50,379 bases of DNA from an uncultured Candidatus Saccharibacteria bacterium (GTDB lineage: Bacteria; Patescibacteriota; Minisyncoccia; Phycocordibacterales; UBA2100), in NCBI GenBank assembly GCA_964589005.1, contig CAZPQI010000002.1:1-50379 (forward strand). Direction: 5' to 3'. Positions 4,844 to 44,548 of this stretch are shown here, piece by piece; positions within the stretch are counted from its first letter, which is position 1; each line of letters opens with the position of its first letter. The notes under the pieces are model-generated. The model saw only the letters and a program-made list of their open reading frames with translations, was not told the DNA's origin and searched no databases. The position numbers and the translations under genes are program-made.

Positions 4844-4897
4844 AGTTACAGCCGTACTATACAAAATTATTGAGTTTTTACCAGAGCAAGTGTAGCG

Positions 4898-5021
4898 AAA
4901 AACCTGCTCGGCTAGATGTAATTCAAGGAGCATGAGTAAAATGGAATAAGTTGTATTGAACATACAACGAGCGACAATTTTATGATATGCGACAAAGGAG
5001 TACGCTAGCCGTGTAGGTTTT
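4898..5021 (+). repeat. Family-2 structured intergenic repeat, copy A
   Basis: 17-bp closing stem AAAACCTGCTCGGCTAG / CTAGCCGTGTAGGTTTT enclosing ATGTAATTCAAGGAGC, the hairpin GTTGTAT-TGAAC-ATACAAC, and GCGACAAAGGAGTACG. Aligns with copies at 20019-20138 (reverse complement) and 50205-50368. Confidence 0.75.
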
Positions 5022-5023
5022 AC

Positions 5024-5485
5024 TTAGAATCCGAACATCTCAAGTAGTCGCTGTAAAAACGGCTCGTGGATTTCTTCTTCAGGTAGATACTCTGATAAAT
5101 AGGCGTGGATTTTCTCTGTGTCTGCCGGGTCAAGTTCAGCAATTAGGTGGGGAGTCATAAATTTACGAGCGTCTATAATTAGAGTCGGATTTTCGGTGTC
5201 ACGACCGTGAATCCAAAAAGCAACCAACATTTGATATGGATACAGAGAATCTTCAATAGTAATACCTCGCTTGGAAAGAGAAAATGTAAGTTCGCGAGCT
5301 GGTTTTTTTGCAAGAAGAGCCATGGTACAGGAGCCAACTAAAATAAGTAACGCAAACAAGAAATTTTTAAACAGTAGCGCCACAATTGCGCTTGATACCG
5401 CGACAATGCCAAGTGCCCAAAACCAATCGGTGCTTTTTTCTGAGTGTTGGTGTTCGTATGCTTTCCAGATAATATCTTGTGGCAT
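5024..5485 (-). CDS. Hypothetical two-TM membrane protein
   Basis: 153-aa ORF with two adjacent hydrophobic helices (WFWALGIVAVSSAIVALLF, FLFALLILVGSCTMALLA) and a soluble C-terminal domain. Confidence 0.55.
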   Translation of the reverse strand: MPQDIIWKAYEHQHSEKSTDWFWALGIVAVSSAIVALLFKNFLFALLILVGSCTMALLAKKPARELTFSLSKRGITIEDSLYPYQMLVAFWIHGRDTENPTLIIDARKFMTPHLIAELDPADTEKIHAYLSEYLPEEEIHEPFLQRLLEMFGF

Positions 5486-9584: not shown

Positions 9585-10670
9585 ATGCAGGGTCTGCATA
9601 CAAATAGAATTGCAGCGCTCTTTCCGCCGCCAGAGTTTCTTGCGATGCCTTCAGCTGGTATCGATATTTCGGACACCTCCATTAAATATGTTGATGCAAC
9701 ATACTCTCGTGCAGGCTTAGTTCCGCGAGTATTTGACTCAATAAGACTTCCTAAGGGGATAGTGACCGATGGAGTTGTATCAAATGTTCCCGAGCTTGCA
9801 AAAGCGCTACGAGAATTACGCGGACAAAATGACCGACAGTTTGCCAATGTGTCACTTCCTGAAGAATTAGTATATTTGTATACACTAGAAGTTCCCACAG
9901 CGCACAAACATGAAGATATTTTGCAAATAGTCGAGTTCTCGCTAAGCGAACACGTTCCTATTCCTGTTGGTAATGCCGTTTTTAATTATGACGTCATGCG
10001 CAAACATGGTGATGTAACGGAAATAAGTGTCACCGTTTTTCCTAAAGATGTTATCGAAGGATACAAGCAAGCATTTGAGGAAAGTGGTTTTAAAGTAAAA
10101 GGATTTGAGCTCGAAGCTCAGTCGGTTGCACGATCTATTATTCCGACAGGTTCAGTTGGTGTGTCTATGGTTATTGATTTTGGGCGAACACGCACAGGAA
10201 TTACTATTGCGTTGGGGCAGGTACCTATTTTTAGCACAACAGTAAAAATTGGGGGAAATGCGCTTACTGAGGCGATTATGGAACATTATTCGGTTTCCGA
10301 AGACGATGCCGATGAAATAAAACGACAGCAAGGAATATCTGAATGTGAAGACGAAGAGCTTTGTAAAAATCTCATGGACACCACAACTGCACTTATAGAC
10401 GAAATTCGACGACACTATCGGTATTGGGACACACGCCGTGACGAAGACGGAAATAAAATTGCAGGAATAGAAAGAATTTTTCTCTGTGGAGGAGCGGTGG
10501 GGTTAAAGGGTTTACCTGAGCATGTATCGGGAGTACTACAAGTACCGGTTCGCTTGGGTAATGTGTGGGGCAACATGTTTAACCTTAATGAACATATACC
10601 AAAAGTGTCTCGTGTTATTTCTTGGCAGTACGCCACGTCCACGGGATTATTGTTACGGGATGTGATGTAG
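9585..10670 (+). CDS. pilM: Type IV pilus assembly protein PilM (actin-like ATPase fold)
   Basis: AGIDISDTSIKYV, VIDFGRTRTGITI and IFLCGGAVGLKGL match the PilM/FtsA-like phosphate and adenosine motifs. PilN/O-like bitopic proteins follow. Confidence 0.75.
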   Translation: MQGLHTNRIAALFPPPEFLAMPSAGIDISDTSIKYVDATYSRAGLVPRVFDSIRLPKGIVTDGVVSNVPELAKALRELRGQNDRQFANVSLPEELVYLYTLEVPTAHKHEDILQIVEFSLSEHVPIPVGNAVFNYDVMRKHGDVTEISVTVFPKDVIEGYKQAFEESGFKVKGFELEAQSVARSIIPTGSVGVSMVIDFGRTRTGITIALGQVPIFSTTVKIGGNALTEAIMEHYSVSEDDADEIKRQQGISECEDEELCKNLMDTTTALIDEIRRHYRYWDTRRDEDGNKIAGIERIFLCGGAVGLKGLPEHVSGVLQVPVRLGNVWGNMFNLNEHIPKVSRVISWQYATSTGLLLRDVM

Positions 10671-16401: not shown

Positions 16402-17038
16402 AAAGTTGGAACGAGACTGGAGAGCAGAAAATTTGGCAGTTTACAATAAAACGGCAGTTAGAATGGCGAAGAAGTTTAACGATATAGGAGCACGAACTAA
16501 AGATATAGACATTTTGTTTTCTTACCTTGAGGATGGGGTAATAGACCCTCAAATATTGGAAATAGGATGTGGGAACGGTAGAGATGCCAAAGAAATAAGT
16601 AGAAGAACCAAAAATTACTTAGGGATAGATGTTTCGGAAGGCATGATTAATATAGCTAGAGACACTGTTCCCAACACTGAGTTTATCGTAGCGGACATGG
16701 AAACGTACACTTTTCCAGAAAACTTAGATGCTGTTGTTGCGTTCGCATCATTGTTGCATTCTGATAGAGCTACCTTTGCAAGTGTGCTTCAAAAAGCTTG
16801 GAACTCACTTACACCTGAAGGAGTTTTCTATATTTCGTTAAAGAAAGGTAATTATGGAAAACATGTAAAGACAGATGAATTCGGTACAAGAACTTATTAC
16901 TTCTACACACGTGGTGACATTGAGAAGCTTACTAAAAATAATTACGATATTGTAAATGTAGTTGATACGGAGCTTAATGGACAAGAGTGGTTAGACATTG
17001 TTCTCAAGAGAAAAGGTAAAAAAACTTATGGAAAATAA
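16391..17038 (+). CDS. Class I SAM-dependent methyltransferase
   Basis: Motif I ILEIGCGNGRDA and motif II DAVVAFASLLH. ATG at 16391 is preceded by GGAGG and overlaps the end of uppS by 11 nt. Confidence 0.75.
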   Translation: MENKKLERDWRAENLAVYNKTAVRMAKKFNDIGARTKDIDILFSYLEDGVIDPQILEIGCGNGRDAKEISRRTKNYLGIDVSEGMINIARDTVPNTEFIVADMETYTFPENLDAVVAFASLLHSDRATFASVLQKAWNSLTPEGVFYISLKKGNYGKHVKTDEFGTRTYYFYTRGDIEKLTKNNYDIVNVVDTELNGQEWLDIVLKRKGKKTYGK

Positions 17039-17762
17039 TCCCATTATAATTTATGAAGATGAGGATGTGTTGGTTATAAACAAACCATCTGGTTTAGTGG
17101 TGCATGGCGACGGACGTACAAAAGAGGATTCGGTTGCTGACTGGGTGGTAGAAAAGTATCCTGAAATAAAAGAAGTGGGAGAGCCATGGGAAAATCAAAA
17201 AGGAGAATTGATACCTCGCCCTGGTATTGTGCATCGGCTCGATAGAGAAACGAGTGGCGTTATGGTGGTCGCTAAAACACAAGAGAGCTTCGAGTTTTTA
17301 AAAGAGCAGTTTAAAGAACGGAATGTAAAAAAGACATATCGAACATTCGTATACGATGTATTTAAAGAGGAGGATGGAGACATAGAAAGACCCATTGGGA
17401 AAAGCAAAAATGATTTTAGGAAGTGGTCAGCACAGCCCGGAAGTCGGGGAGTGCAAAGGAGTGCACACACTGCGTGGGAGGTATTGGGAAGAATTGAGAA
17501 GAACAATAAAAAATACACGTACCTTGAACTAACTCCCACCACAGGGCGTACACATCAGTTGAGGGTACATTTAAAAGCAATTCACCACCCCATAGTGTGC
17601 GATAAGCTCTACGCACCAAAGCGTGGATGCTATCTTGGGTTTAAGCGTTTGGCATTACACGCACATACTTTAACTATTTCAACCAAGGGTACATTTGAAG
17701 CTCCGTTTCCTGAGGATTTTGAGGACGCAATACAAGAGCTGGATATTATAGATAATAACTGA
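17028..17762 (+). CDS. RluA-family pseudouridine synthase
   Basis: VINKPSGLVVH, catalytic HRLDRETSGVMVVAKT, and TGRTHQLRVHL. It lacks an S4 domain. Confidence 0.85.
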   Translation: MENNPIIIYEDEDVLVINKPSGLVVHGDGRTKEDSVADWVVEKYPEIKEVGEPWENQKGELIPRPGIVHRLDRETSGVMVVAKTQESFEFLKEQFKERNVKKTYRTFVYDVFKEEDGDIERPIGKSKNDFRKWSAQPGSRGVQRSAHTAWEVLGRIEKNNKKYTYLELTPTTGRTHQLRVHLKAIHHPIVCDKLYAPKRGCYLGFKRLALHAHTLTISTKGTFEAPFPEDFEDAIQELDIIDNN

Positions 17763-18472: not shown

Positions 18473-19105
18473 ATGAATAACAAAGTCATCACAAGTCCAG
18501 TAAATATGGAAGAGCGAGCGAATCTTGGCATTAAATCTGGGGACACTGTTCGTGTGTGGTTGAAGATTCAAGAAAAAGACAAAACGCGTTTACAGGCCTT
18601 CGAAGGTTTGGTGCTTGCCCGCAAACATGGAGCAGAAGCAGGGGGAACATTTACAGTACGCAAAGTTTCCAGTGGGGTAGGTGTAGAGAAAATTTTCCCA
18701 CTGTATTCGCCAATTATTGATAAAATTGAAATTGTAAAGCGAGCAAAAGTACGTCGTGCTAAGTTGTACTTTATTCGCGACAAAGTTGCTCGCGAAGTTA
18801 AACGATTATTGCGTAATACTAAGATGATGGGAATTTCTACTAAAGGTTCGCTCGAGCTTGAAGCTGAACGTAAGCAAGCTGAATCAGAAGAAAATAAACG
18901 ACAAGAGGAAGAAACAAAACGAGTAGAAGAGGAAGAGGCCGCGAAGACAACAACAGACAATGCAGACGACAGCACTGAAGAGGTAACTGAGGGCGAGTCG
19001 AAAGATGAAGCTCACGAGGAGGAGAAAAAGGAAGAAGAGAAACCAGCAGACACTGAAGAAAAAGAAGCAGAAACTCCAGAGGTGGAAGACAAGAAGAAAG
19101 AATAA
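18473..19105 (+). CDS. rplS: 50S ribosomal protein L19 with about 90-aa Glu/Lys-rich C-terminal extension
   Basis: [31 protein letters not shown]...[28 protein letters not shown] is the L19 core. The tail after about residue 120 is EEKKEE low complexity. Confidence 0.9.
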
Positions 19106-19140
19106 ACAAAACCCTACGATCGAATCGCAGGGTTTTGTTT
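19105..19140. terminator. Hairpin after rplS (17-bp arms, 1 mismatch)
   Basis: AAACAAAACCCTACGAT-CGA-ATCGCAGGGTTTTGTTT. Confidence 0.7.
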
Positions 19141-19145
19141 TATTT

Positions 19146-19240
19146 GGCGCAGGTTACTAATTCACTACGTTCATAAGTACCTCCTGCCCTGGCTCGCCCG
19201 TTTTGCTCAAGGAAAGTCGCAAAACATGACTCCGCCTCAC
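19146..19240 (-). repeat. tRNA-3'-linked structured repeat, copy E4 (downstream of tRNA-Leu; shorter)
   Basis: Minus sense reads GTGAGGCGGAGTCATGTTTTG...CAAAACGGGCGAGCCAGGGCAGG-[25-nt module]-CCTGC. It aligns with the 5' half of the E2 core. It carries the same 25-nt module as E3, in the opposite orientation. Confidence 0.7.
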
Positions 19241-19245
19241 AAATC

Positions 19246-19273
19246 TAAAAAACAGCACACAAGTGCTGTTTTT
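19246..19273 (-). terminator. Hairpin with T run directly 3' of tRNA-Leu
   Basis: AAAAACAGCAC-TTGT-GTGCTGTTTTTT in minus sense. Confidence 0.65.
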
Positions 19274-19285
19274 CTTTACGATTTG

Positions 19286-19369
19286 TGCCCAGAACTGGAG
19301 TTGAACCAGCACGCCCGTAAAGGCACATCCCCCTCAAGGATGCATGTCTACCAATTCCATCACCTGGGC
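19286..19369 (-). tRNA. tRNA-Leu (anticodon GAG), long variable arm
   Basis: Acceptor GCCCAGG/UCUGGGC, D region AUG-GAAUUGGUAGA-CAU, anticodon stem CAUCC/GGAUG with loop UUGAGGG, variable arm UGCCUUUACGGGCG, T loop UUCAACU. Confidence 0.85.
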
Positions 19370-19464
19370 AGTGTGGTGCGTATTTTAACGACTTTTACCG
19401 CGTACGCAACATAAAATGTCTGCCTACTGTACTCAATTGTTGATTCATTATGTATACTCGTTGC

Positions 19465-20019
19465 ATGGTGCTATACACAGGAAAAGGTGATGATGGTACG
19501 ACCAAGCTGTTTAACACAGAATCAGACAGTCGAGTTTCTAAGGATGATGCAATTTTTGAAGCGCTCGGAACCGTGGATGAACTCAATACCGTTATCGGGT
19601 GGTGCCGCAGTGCATGCGCGATTGATTGGTTTGTGGGTGACCAGAGTGTTAGTTCAATTTTGTTAGATGTACAACATCACTTGTTTACTATTCAGGCCGA
19701 ATTGGCTGGAGCAGAAAAAAGTATTCCAGAAAAAAACGTACAACAAATTGAAGTACGCATAATAATAATTGAAGAAAAAATTCCCGAGATAACAACTTTT
19801 TTTGTTCCAGGAGGTAGTGAGTTATCGTCGCGACTCGATATTGCCCGCGCAGTTAGTAGGCGAGCAGAGCGAAGACTGGTAGCACTCGAGGAAGAAAAAA
19901 AAGTATCTGGGTTTACACTTGCATATGCGAATAGGCTTTCTTCACTATTGTATGCTTTGGTGCGATTTGTAAATCATAATACTGATGTTGATGAACAACC
20001 TCCAGAGTACGTTGGGTAG
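19465..20019 (+). CDS. PduO-type ATP:cob(I)alamin adenosyltransferase family protein
   Basis: YTGKGDDGTT N-terminal motif and a helical-bundle remainder (FVPGGSELSSRLDIARAVSRRAER). Start taken at MVLYTGKGDDG. Confidence 0.8.
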   Translation: MVLYTGKGDDGTTKLFNTESDSRVSKDDAIFEALGTVDELNTVIGWCRSACAIDWFVGDQSVSSILLDVQHHLFTIQAELAGAEKSIPEKNVQQIEVRIIIIEEKIPEITTFFVPGGSELSSRLDIARAVSRRAERRLVALEEEKKVSGFTLAYANRLSSLLYALVRFVNHNTDVDEQPPEYVG

Positions 20020-20138
20020 AATCCTCAGAGTTAACGTATTTCTTTGTCGCGCTTCAGCAAATGGCGATTGTTGTATGCGCGATACAACTCACTTCATTTG
20101 TCTCACGCTCCTCGAACTACATTTAATTCTGAGGATTC
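20019..20138 (-). repeat. Family-2 structured intergenic repeat, copy B (inverted relative to copy A)
   Basis: Closing stem GAATCCTCAGAGTTAA / TTAATTCTGAGGATTC (one G-T). The reverse complement aligns with copy A over ATGTAGTTCGAGGAGCG, GTTGTAT-CGCGC-ATACAAC and GCGACAAAGAAATACG. Confidence 0.75.
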
Positions 20139-20218
20139 TAGAGTTAGCGCTGTATAAGAAGTTCGCGAAGTAGTGTAAAATTTGTTATATATAGCGAGTG
20201 CTCGTAGGCACACACTAT

Positions 20219-25686: not shown

Positions 25687-26109
25687 ATGGCAAAAAAGGT
25701 AGAAAAACAATTAAAGCTTCAGGTACCAGCAGGTAAGGCAACTCCTGCGCCACCACTTGGTCCTGCATTAGGGCAAGCGGGTATTAACATTGGTGATTTT
25801 GTAAACCAGTTTAACGACGCAACACGCGACATGATGGGAGATTTAATTCCTGTAGTCATTAGTGTGTACGATGATAGAAGTTTCGATTTCATCCTTAAAA
25901 CGCCTCCTGCATCGAGCCTTCTTCTTAAAGCAATCAACCAACAAAAAGGTTCAGGAAGTAATTTAACTAAAAAAGTAGGTAGCGTAACTCAACAACAGCT
26001 TGAAGATATTGCTACACGAAAACTTGAAGATTTAAGTGCCAACGATGTAAAAGCGGGAGCCAAGATTATTGCGGGGACAGCTCGCTCGATGGGAATCGAG
26101 GTAGAATAA
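25687..26109 (+). CDS. rplK: 50S ribosomal protein L11
   Basis: [34 protein letters not shown] is the invariant L11 N-terminal domain. Confidence 0.95.
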
Positions 26110-26226
26110 TCTCAAATTTAGCGTATTGCTTTGGCGCACTGCGAGAAAAACACACGCACCATATCTCGATATGTCTTGCGTGTTTTTTCTTGCGCTTCGC
26201 GCACTACATCTAAATTTGAGTTTATT
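26105..26226 (+). repeat. About 122-nt extended hairpin immediately after rplK
   Basis: Outer arms AATAATCTCAAATTTAG / CTAAATTTGAGTTTATT (16/17) and inner arms GAAAAACACACGCA / TGCGTGTTTTTTC. Probably a terminator or stability element. Confidence 0.6.
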
Positions 26227-26295
26227 CTTAAACCACACTTCATTTGTAACTTTTTGCTATACTCTATGTAATAACATTTGCGTATGACATAAGTC

Positions 26296-26334
26296 ACCTA
26301 AAAACCTAGTAACCTAAGAAGCTAATAACCTAAG
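26296..26334 (+). promoter_or_regulatory. Four phased ACCTA(A/G) repeats in the glyA 5' region
   Basis: ACCTAA (26296), AACCTAG (26303), and TAACCTAAG twice (26310 and 26326). Spacing is 8, 8 and 16 nt. They end 10 nt before the glyA ATG. Confidence 0.35.
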
Positions 26335-26344
26335 CAATTAACTT

Positions 26345-27619
26345 ATGTCTAAACCTCAAGATCTATCATTTTTAGAAGAGCAAGACAGCGACGTATACAA
26401 TGCAATACGTGGTGAAGAAAAACGTCAAGAAGAAGGACTTGAATTAATTCCATCAGAAAACTATGTCTCAAAAGCAGTACGTGAAGCAATGGGCTCGGTA
26501 TTAACTAATAAATATTCTGAAGGGTATCCGGGGAAACGGTATTATGGTGGACAAGAATTTACTGACTCGGTAGAAGACACTGCGCGAGAGCGAGTAAAAA
26601 AGCTTTTTAACTGCAAATACGCAAATGTCCAAGCTCATTCAGGAGCATCGGCGAACATTGCTATGTACTTTGCATTGCTTGAACCAGGCGACACAGTGTT
26701 GGGTATGGATCTTTCACACGGTGGGCATTTAACGCACGGACATCCCGTCACGTATGTAACTAAAATATTTAATTTCGTACGGTATAAAATGAAAAACAGT
26801 GACACTGGAGAGATTGATTACGACGAAATGCGAGAAGTGGCGCTACGCGAGAAACCAAAGATAATTTTGGCTGGCTTCTCTGCGTACTCGCGGGAACTTG
26901 ATTATCAAAAAATTTCTGATATCGCAAAAGAGGTGGGGGCGATTTCAGTTATGGATGCAGCGCATATCGCAGGGCTTATCGCAGGAGGGGCACACAAAAA
27001 TCCGTTTGATTACGGGTTCGACATTATTACCTCAACAACACACAAAACACTACGTGGCCCACGAGGAGGACTGATACTTGTGCGAGAAGACGAAGCGATG
27101 GCAAAAAAGATAGACAAGAGTGTATTTCCTGGGTTGCAAGGAGGGCCACTCATGCACCAGATTGCAGCGCGCGCCGTGGCGTTTGGTGAAGCACTACACC
27201 CCAGTTTCAAAGATCATGTACAACAAGTGATAAAAAATGCCGCAGCAATGGCCGAAGTTTTTGACAGAGAAGAGGTCCGAATGTTAGGTGGTGGCACGAG
27301 CAACCATCTTATTCTTGCTGACATCACAAGTTTTGGTATCGATGGGCACGTCGCCGAAACGGCTCTGGATGAGGTTGGTATTACATTAAATAAGAATATG
27401 ATAGCTGATGACCCAAACCCACCGATGAAGCCATCAGGAATTCGTTTTGGAACCCCTGCCATCACTACACGTGGCTTTAAAGAAAAAGAATGTGCACGAG
27501 TAGCCGAACTTATGATAGAAATATTACGAAATCACACCGATGAAGATGTAAAACAAAAAGTACACGAAGAAATCAAAGAGCTCGCCCACAAGTTTCCAAT
27601 TCCAGACAAACACTTTTGA
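26345..27619 (+). CDS. glyA: Serine hydroxymethyltransferase
   Basis: LELIPSENYVS, YSEGYPGKRYYGG, and PLP lysine context TSTTHKTLRGPRGG. Confidence 0.95.
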   Translation: MSKPQDLSFLEEQDSDVYNAIRGEEKRQEEGLELIPSENYVSKAVREAMGSVLTNKYSEGYPGKRYYGGQEFTDSVEDTARERVKKLFNCKYANVQAHSGASANIAMYFALLEPGDTVLGMDLSHGGHLTHGHPVTYVTKIFNFVRYKMKNSDTGEIDYDEMREVALREKPKIILAGFSAYSRELDYQKISDIAKEVGAISVMDAAHIAGLIAGGAHKNPFDYGFDIITSTTHKTLRGPRGGLILVREDEAMAKKIDKSVFPGLQGGPLMHQIAARAVAFGEALHPSFKDHVQQVIKNAAAMAEVFDREEVRMLGGGTSNHLILADITSFGIDGHVAETALDEVGITLNKNMIADDPNPPMKPSGIRFGTPAITTRGFKEKECARVAELMIEILRNHTDEDVKQKVHEEIKELAHKFPIPDKHF

Positions 27620-44332: not shown

Positions 44333-44548
44333 AATACCTATATTATAGCATGTCTGTAACTTGAAATAGAATGACACCGTTATTCTGCAGATTGCGACAC
44401 AGGAGAACAGACACGCGTTGCACTTACTGCGCTTGTTGGTGAGTTGAAATTAGGCTAACCCTAGAACGTCAGTAGGTTGATAAAATTTACATAGTGGAAT
44501 AGAGTCCATGTGTTCATTAAATCACCACAATAAGGAAAGGAGGAAGAT

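Follow-up and report, generated by a model that had tools for sequence, protein, structure and literature searches.

What kind of genetic element holds a conserved interior between closing stems that are different at every site yet always paired? The question is raised by a window of 50,379 nucleotides (the whole stretch of DNA analysed here, the leading bases of a 63-kb contig), in which an initial annotation had described three copies of a structured intergenic repeat. The genome studied (G000; 821 kb, 46 contigs, 94% complete) is the tiny genome of a Kaiserbacteria-type (CPR) bacterium, and the CPR bacteria, or Patescibacteria, have the smallest and most streamlined free-standing bacterial genomes.

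Identification of the repeat family

Searches with nhmmer using the three annotated copies (A, B, and C) as seeds returned dozens of matches, and iteration brought these to 42 in the genome. A covariance model built from 40 copies and applied to the whole genome identified 43 clear copies at E ≤ 7e-10, four of them in the window, so that the original count of three was wrong. The fourth, copy D, lies immediately behind rplK and had been overlooked. All copies in G000 are hairpin repeats of about 135 nt without a gene, and together they occupy 5.4 kb, or 0.66% of the DNA; a streamlined genome nevertheless spends this share on one hairpin repeat that is found across a class. The copies are old, the best core identity between any two being 86%. 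Those in the window and the genes that they abut are as follows.

4898..5021, plus strand: copy A, a 124-nt rod hairpin (covariance-model match 4884-5032)
5024..5485, minus strand: gene for a 153-aa membrane protein, its stop codon adjoining copy A
19450..20019, plus strand: cob(I)alamin adenosyltransferase-family gene, its TAG stop within the closing stem of copy B
20017..20140, minus strand: copy B, a rod hairpin whose outermost three base pairs include the TAG stop of the upstream gene
25687..26109, plus strand: rplK (ribosomal protein L11), the gene abutted by copy D
26103..26232, minus strand: copy D, a rod hairpin immediately behind rplK
50196..50377, plus strand: copy C, a variant that carries an additional hairpin, about 57 nt long, after GAGGAGCGAC

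Copies A, B, and C, first placed at 4898-5021 (plus strand), 20019-20138 (minus strand), and 50205-50368 (plus strand), were confirmed as homologous. The conserved interior blocks described for them are present, and B and C have exact runs of 16, 16, and 12 nt in common, as had been noted. The family was also correctly described as structured and absent from Rfam: its stems co-vary strongly, and searches with the window and five related loci gave no Rfam match at the gathering threshold or at E ≤ 1-10. A literature search for repeats or MITEs in CPR/Patescibacteria gave no hits, and no paper on the family was found.

Three other points of the initial annotation did not hold. The proposed association with tRNA genes is not general, since of the 43 copies only A and B have such a gene within 300 nt, and it is a coincidence in a window rich in tRNA genes. 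A degenerate fragment suggested at 44391-44407 was detected neither by nhmmer nor by the covariance model. Beyond position 50379, where a tRNA gene had been considered, there is a 100-N scaffold gap (C2:50380-50479) followed by ssb and rpsR. The last 54 nt of copy C are duplicated on the other side of this gap, and the duplication is an assembly overlap artefact at a palindromic repeat. The rods thus carry a warning for annotation: they overlap stop codons, replace terminators, and break assemblies, as copy C does at the gap.

Structure, covariation, and folding strand

Each of copies A, B, and C folds into one long rod, with minimum free energies of -47.5, -47.2, and -50.4 kcal/mol and z-scores against dinucleotide shuffles of -7.5, -7.2, and -4.9, respectively. 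Outermost in the rod is a closing helix that varies in sequence, spans about 17 bp, and often has the termini TAGRA...TYCTA. Next inward is a conserved imperfect helix, TTGG-A-TGCA-G-TTC opposite GAA-A-TGCG-CCAA, which contains a U.G pair and is interrupted by a bulged A and a G.A mismatch. It encloses an asymmetric loop, GAGG opposite ACAAAG, and a helix of 3-4 bp, beyond which a variable A/T-rich helix leads to a conserved tip hairpin, GYNGTAT-loop-ATACNRC. Two boxes of about 20 nt, imperfectly paired, are conserved: TTGGATGCAGTTCGAGGCGC on the 5' side and GCAACAAAGAAATGCGCCAA on the 3' side.

The earlier statement that the closing stems differ yet pair stands, although the 8-bp stem assigned to copy C is actually about 17 bp long (50196-50377). 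The extra hairpin reported in copy C is real, and the same insertion occurs in a second copy, at G000:C12:18645-18853. A strain in metagenome run X2 differs within copy A by A4948G and C4972T; both changes shift copy A closer to the family consensus, and C4972T converts a mismatch of the rod (A.C, 4946/4972) into an A-U pair.

RNAalifold analysis of a MAFFT alignment of the paralogues revealed 44 base pairs, 41 of them with double (compensatory) changes. The element's own strand, by which we mean the strand given in the initial annotation, was the more stable in 39 of 41 copies, by a mean of 10 kcal/mol (Wilcoxon p = 4e-8). In the variable helices, G-U outnumbered A-C by 79 to 30 in convergent copies and by 38 to 9 in the other copies, and the excess in both sets indicates that the asymmetry follows the polarity of the element and not the direction of host transcription. 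It also opposes the local GC skew, and we infer that it is opposite to the outcome of transcription- or replication-linked deamination. These results show that the strand required to fold is the element's own, which is usually antisense to the abutted gene.

A fold borne by the element's own strand, usually antisense to the neighbour, together with strong covariation, would also suit independent small RNA or antisense RNA genes transcribed from that strand. However, nothing is conserved upstream of the 5' arm, where flank identity between copies (27%) is at background; in the atpE-atpF spacer described below, the promoter would have to be inside atpF. Moreover, 43 paralogues in a 0.8-Mb genome and zero in sister species are unlike RNA genes. 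The repeat is not plausibly a set of dedicated RNA genes, and we consider this reading very improbable.

Position at stop codons

In G000, about 30 of the 43 copies have a convergent gene whose stop codon is positioned where the 3' arm ends, and a crude gene call gave a convergent 3' neighbour for 34 of 42 copies. This stop codon is 10-20 nt from the core, which corresponds to the outer end of the closing helix. Exact measurement at 30 sites placed the end of the helix in the range from 6 nt short of the stop codon to 1 nt beyond the first base of that codon at 23 of them, whereas at the other 7 the helix reaches 4-27 nt into the coding sequence. The arrangement recurs in other genera (G013 and G020), where a convergent stop lies within a few nucleotides of the 3' arm in 14 of 20 copies, compared with 2 of 20 on the mirror side. 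Copies are thus shown to land, or to survive, directly 3' of stop codons in one orientation.

In the window, 2 nt separate the end of copy A's 3' arm from the stop codon at 5024-5026, which belongs to the convergent 153-aa gene, and the closing stem of copy D takes in the final GAA codon of rplK and its TAA stop, both present as an inverted copy in the far arm. Copy C belongs to the minority that are co-oriented with both neighbours, in the order rpsF terminator, copy C, ssb.

Stop codon usage at these sites is biased. TAG was found at 16 of 30 element-adjacent genes, compared with 31% genome-wide (p = 0.008), and in a comparison with the complete genome G008, used to distinguish empty from filled sites, TAG at the filled site in G000 corresponded to TAA at the empty site in G008 in 10 cases, with the reverse in 2. 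This offers a testable link between gene ends, that is, stop codons, and the insertion or retention of the element. There is no U-tract behind the rod on either strand, so the rod is not an intrinsic terminator, and separate canonical terminators lie downstream of many copies.

The location just behind ORF stop codons recalls integron attC sites, whose hallmarks are R''(RYYYAAC)...R'(GTTRRRY) boxes, cassette arrays, and an integrase. As in attC sites, it is the bottom strand that folds, as an imperfect palindrome with extrahelical bases, and that folded strand is the active one in attC. However, attC-like single-strand recombination sites marking gene cassettes can hardly be credited here, and we rejected this candidate: the box order is GTTRRRY...RYYYAAC-like, the reverse of attC (consensus), with no R-box consensus; filled and empty sites differ by the element alone and not by a cassette; and the copies in G000 form no arrays, being scattered beside core genes (rplK and ssb, and atpE in other genomes) and in regions rich in tRNA synthetase genes.

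Distribution, gain, and loss

An even sample of the class revealed copies in 35 of 301 genomes and in 30 of 221 genera, and at least one copy was present in 93 of 151 genomes of the taxonomic family. Within the genus, copy number ranges from 0 to 44 across species, the species other than that of G000 having 0, 0, 7, 0, 3, 7, 18, 7, 5, and 1 copies. The hairpin repeat is therefore widespread yet patchy in the class Paceibacteria (Kaiserbacteria and relatives).

Comparison of orthologous sites showed that about 25 sites filled in G000 are empty in G008, with protein C-termini unchanged, and that 4 sites are filled in both; copies have been gained and lost from one species to another. At the copy A site, for example, the G008 orthologue of the 153-aa gene ends with the same residue and has no element behind it. 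Only 2 of 10 species of the genus, G000 and its closest relative G007, carry the element at rplK, and the eight others have a canonical intrinsic terminator instead. In the window (26110-26345), the element replaces the rplK terminator, and no terminator was seen before glyA. Contigs skipping copy A or B were not found in three seawater metagenomes, and no RNA run was found to contain the locus.

Where close relatives carry copies at the same site, the closing and inner stems are unrelated, as observed at rplK (G000 and G007) and at C6:32948 (G000 and G008). The rplK-site copies of G000 and G007 are about 60% identical, whereas the L11 proteins are 93% identical. Such same-site differences are more suggestive of hot spots, at which copies are replaced or insert independently, than of simple descent.

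Bursts of copies were seen in two genomes: G391 carries 5 identical copies, and G304 carries 8 near-identical copies at different loci. The burst copies have an extra outer shell, consisting in G304 of 18-bp inverted ends with 3-bp TNA duplications, which are TTA, TAA, or TGA in 7 of 8 cases. The same shell also exists alone in G304, as a palindromic MITE of 47-51 nt with TTA duplications; such empty shells (GAAAGTGTTTACAAAACCTTCG-TAG-CGAAGG...) were recorded at L184 (G304:C3:67294-67340) and L185 (G304:C6:7823-7870). Since the shell exists without the module, the composite is the product of nesting, in which the module came to lie in the tip of another palindrome, followed by amplification. 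Nesting in a foreign palindrome tip is supported once, by the eight amplified copies of G304. The TNA duplications and long inverted ends bear the signature of a DDE transposase, rather than of an HUH enzyme, at work on the outer shell.

These extended copies are also an argument for a classical MITE of the cut-and-paste kind, in which a DDE transposase would mobilise an element bounded by terminal inverted repeats and the TA or TNA target would coincide with stop codons. The inverted termini of canonical copies (TAGRA...TYCTA) would fit this reading, and so would the 10-to-2 excess of TAG at filled over TAA at empty sites, which is expected if the first G of the element completes a TA target. 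However, the inverted ends and duplications in G304 belong to the separate MITE, which also occurs module-free, and 61 canonical copies showed no excess of direct repeats (3-6 nt) at their borders. A double-strand mechanism further predicts neither a strand-specific G-U bias nor a conserved interior, and it leaves the orientation bias relative to genes unexplained. We therefore consider a cut-and-paste origin improbable. The initial annotation had named dozens of copies, terminal inverted repeats, and target-site duplications as the features of a plain MITE; the dozens of copies were found, the canonical copies have inverted termini that recur across genera but are weakly alike over the outer 14 bp, and target-site duplications were not found, so that the repeat resembles a REPIN-like hairpin element more than a plain MITE.

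Origin of the closing helix

The closing stems contain sequence of two kinds. The outer 14-bp arms are 36-37% identical between copies, compared with 27% for the flanks, and arm similarity tracks core similarity weakly but significantly (Mantel p about 0.01). Termini such as TAGGAC...GTCCTA or TAGRA...TYCTA recur across genera. As the arms are more alike than the flanks and the termini recur, part of the helix travels with the element, and a closing stem derived purely from the target was rejected because arm similarity tracks core similarity.

A purely element-borne stem was likewise rejected, because the arms complement conserved coding ends. At ssb, the far arm GGCTAAAAC is matched to the gene end ...CCGTTTTAGCC, which encodes the universally conserved DDIPF* end. 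At rplK, the far arm matches the stop codon of the species itself, TAA in G000 and TAG in G007, and inverted copies of the gene end were also found in the far arm at atpE and at a site on C38 (KNPF* end). A coding end of this kind cannot have adapted to the element, so the match must have arisen in the far arm, either by copying of the gene end or by selection. The helix stays about 17 bp long at any distance between core and stop codon. Insertion into a terminator loop was also considered as the source of the stem and was rejected, the stems being AT-rich, about 17 bp long, and without a U-tract, with separate terminators downstream.

A tentative and on balance rather unlikely extension of these observations is that the repeat is a hairpin replicator whose active strand is antisense to the abutted gene, which homes to ORF ends and palindrome tips, and which rebuilds its closing stem by copying the gene end, with the stop codon, in inverted form over about 3-15 nt. 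Such copying might proceed by snap-back or template-switch synthesis on ssDNA or cDNA, and it would explain closing stems that are different at every site yet always paired. To our knowledge, no described transposon makes an inverted "target duplication" of this gene-end kind; a mechanistic basis for the inverted copying, if there is one, would make it a novel form of DNA mobility.

The inverted gene-end copies can also be accommodated by a retro-mobile hairpin, in which the element is transcribed together with the upstream gene, converted into cDNA, and re-inserted, with snap-back synthesis making the inverted copy. The position before terminators and the orientation of the copies ensure read-through transcription of the complementary strand, and the polarity of the cDNA would be that of the folding strand. 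Neither a reverse transcriptase linked to the element nor a poly-A or priming signature is visible, and we judge this route quite improbable.

The atpE-atpF site

Among genomes with a single copy, 9 of 16 have it directly behind atpE (ATP synthase subunit c), and an added scan of atpE loci showed the atpE-atpF spacer to be occupied in at least 19 species; the element is absent from this spacer in G000 and G008. In all 12 loci examined, atpF starts 5-25 nt beyond the element, which thus fills a spacer within an operon. The 3' arm consists of the last 4-5 atpE codons and the stop codon.

The 19 atpE orthologues, aligned with MAFFT and folded de novo, gave a common rod of 42 pairs, 37 of them with compensatory changes. 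In this alignment 89.9% of cells are paired, compared with 67.5% after shuffling, a value as high being reached in 0 of 500 shuffles; with the partners slid, 35-39% of cells are paired. Synonymous differences in the end codons of atpE are mirrored in the far arm, and the element strand, antisense to atpE, was the more stable in 9 of 9 atpE copies. The orthologues form a natural data set on the upkeep of a palindromic fold, in which some compensations occur against synonymous coding changes. The fold has persisted for very long times, and it is kept even where the atpE copy is the sole copy in the genome, which selection for transposition cannot explain and which points to a host-level role or a palindrome-correcting process. 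Some sites, atpE-atpF among them, are probable cases of co-option of the hairpin by the host.

A host function has also been considered for the family as a whole. The element would then be a cis-acting RNA structure in the mRNA, in a 3' UTR or intercistronic spacer, serving as an exonuclease barrier, an RNase III site, or a device for translational coupling that hides the stop or next start region, and its spread would be secondary. The filled spacer in at least 19 species, with the last atpE codons and stop in the base of the rod, and the persistence of the fold in lone copies fit this proposal, and the location between stop codon and intrinsic terminator at many sites means that the element is co-transcribed. 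However, the mRNA strand is the one that folds more weakly, with 59 A-C and 16 G-U by hand count in the atpE orthologues, and the G-U bias follows the polarity of the element instead of the direction of the neighbouring gene. A range of 0 to 44 copies within one genus, with mostly empty orthologous sites, is also a misfit with a needed regulator. As an account of the family, a host RNA element appears unlikely to us, if still worth serious consideration.

Mobility and candidate machinery

Patchy spread, empty orthologous sites, bursts of identical copies, and nesting together show a mobile or formerly mobile non-autonomous element, and the polarity-bound G-U bias and the lack of duplications favour a single-stranded intermediate over double-strand cut-and-paste. 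The explanation that we prefer, with confidence about evenly balanced between acceptance and doubt, is that the copies are non-coding, non-autonomous hairpin repeats of about 135 nt of the REPIN/MITE kind, with a single-strand active form, a trans-acting host enzyme, and a closing helix that is partly rebuilt. The active form would be a single-stranded hairpin, most likely ssDNA but possibly cDNA or RNA. A host-encoded enzyme would handle the hairpin in trans, and the closing helix would be partly rebuilt at each site by inverted copying of the adjacent gene end.

The obvious candidates for the enzyme are four RAYT-like HUH Y1 tyrosine transposases encoded in G000 outside the window, in the following regions.

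C18:16750-17500: RAYT-like gene region, with the gene at 16777-17436
C9:9925-10645: RAYT-like gene region, with the gene at 9950-10603
C1:18420-19425: RAYT-like gene region, with the gene at 18717-19373
C5:1867-2555: RAYT-like gene region, with the gene at 1867-2547

The best NCBIfam match of these proteins is NF047646, "REP-associated tyrosine transposase", with scores of 36-69 bits where the cut-off is 80. Three of the four genes are bracketed on both sides by palindromes of their own of 25-29 nt (e.g. ATAGATAGTCATTCGATGACTATCTAT), a REPtron-like layout that, as far as we know, is unreported for CPR bacteria. A REPtron arrangement of the hairpin repeat itself was rejected, as no copy lies within 1.5 kb of the best RAYT-like genes in the four genomes G000, G007, G013, and G039.

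A Y1 match was found in 9 of 10 genomes with at least 3 copies and in 14 of 31 others, in a hand tally that is confounded by phylogeny. Several observations count against a RAYT or other HUH enzyme: G003, G010, G014, and G019 contain copies but no Y1 transposase match, and the bursts of identical copies have long inverted ends and 3-bp TNA duplications. The IS200/IS605 model expects the folding strand on the lagging-strand template, which is the sense strand of the gene. The folding strand observed here is the opposite one, and this counts against the preferred explanation. So do the age of the copies in G000, the absence of presence/absence polymorphism from the three metagenomes, the RAYT-like genes that the element does not flank, and the upkeep of the fold in lone atpE copies.

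Comparison with known systems

The closest likeness is to REPINs, doublets of REP sequences that form hairpins and are associated with RAYT transposases (Bertels & Rainey 2011, PMC3116915). Shared features are two conserved inverted boxes around a less conserved spacer, a long single-strand hairpin, common compensatory changes, tens of copies without target-site duplication, long vertical persistence, and RAYT-like genes in the genome (PMC3116915). The present repeat differs in having a closing helix of about 17 bp outside the boxes that includes the stop and last codons of the neighbour, a conserved tip hairpin, and no RAYT-like gene flanked by it. Its copies lie directly behind stop codons in one orientation, whereas REPINs are random in extragenic space, and its host is a CPR bacterium.

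ERIC (IRU) and Correia (NEMIS/CREE) elements are structured MITEs of Enterobacteria and Neisseria. They too are imperfect palindromes, 100-150 bp long and located in transcribed intergenic DNA, forming RNA hairpins with orientation-dependent effects, but have defined inverted ends and TA duplications. These families are not known to show systematic contact with stop codons, or a strand-specific G-U bias that is independent of the direction of transcription.

Liang, Rudd & Deutscher reportedly found in 2015 that stop-proximal REP sequences of E. coli stall terminating ribosomes and lower expression of the upstream gene. These also place a stable hairpin within about 15 nt of the stop codon. They are about 35 nt long, whereas the stems of the present repeat often contain the stop codon itself, and its weaker-folding strand is the one in the mRNA.

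With IS200/IS605-type single-strand transposition and its miniature derivatives the repeat shares strand-specific hairpins with bulges and G.T pairs, the lack of duplication, and orientation-specific insertion beside a short target motif, although no target tetranucleotide could be defined at the hairpin-repeat sites. The IS200/IS605 hairpins are about 20-30 nt long, with one at each end of a longer element, and for co-directional genes the predicted folding strand is opposite to that seen here.

Two minor observations concern neighbouring elements. Behind ssb in G008, a distinct element of about 110 nt (GGTGAAGGACAGAGCTTTGTAAGGCAAAGCG...) lies between the ssb stop codon and the hairpin element (L005, G008:C1:424346-424560); part of it also occurs behind ssb in G006, and it may represent another mobile family. 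In G000, a tandem pair of hairpin-repeat copies in the same orientation, with about 20 nt between them, was found at C6:32832-33095, and similar adjacent pairs occur in G005, G006, and G236.
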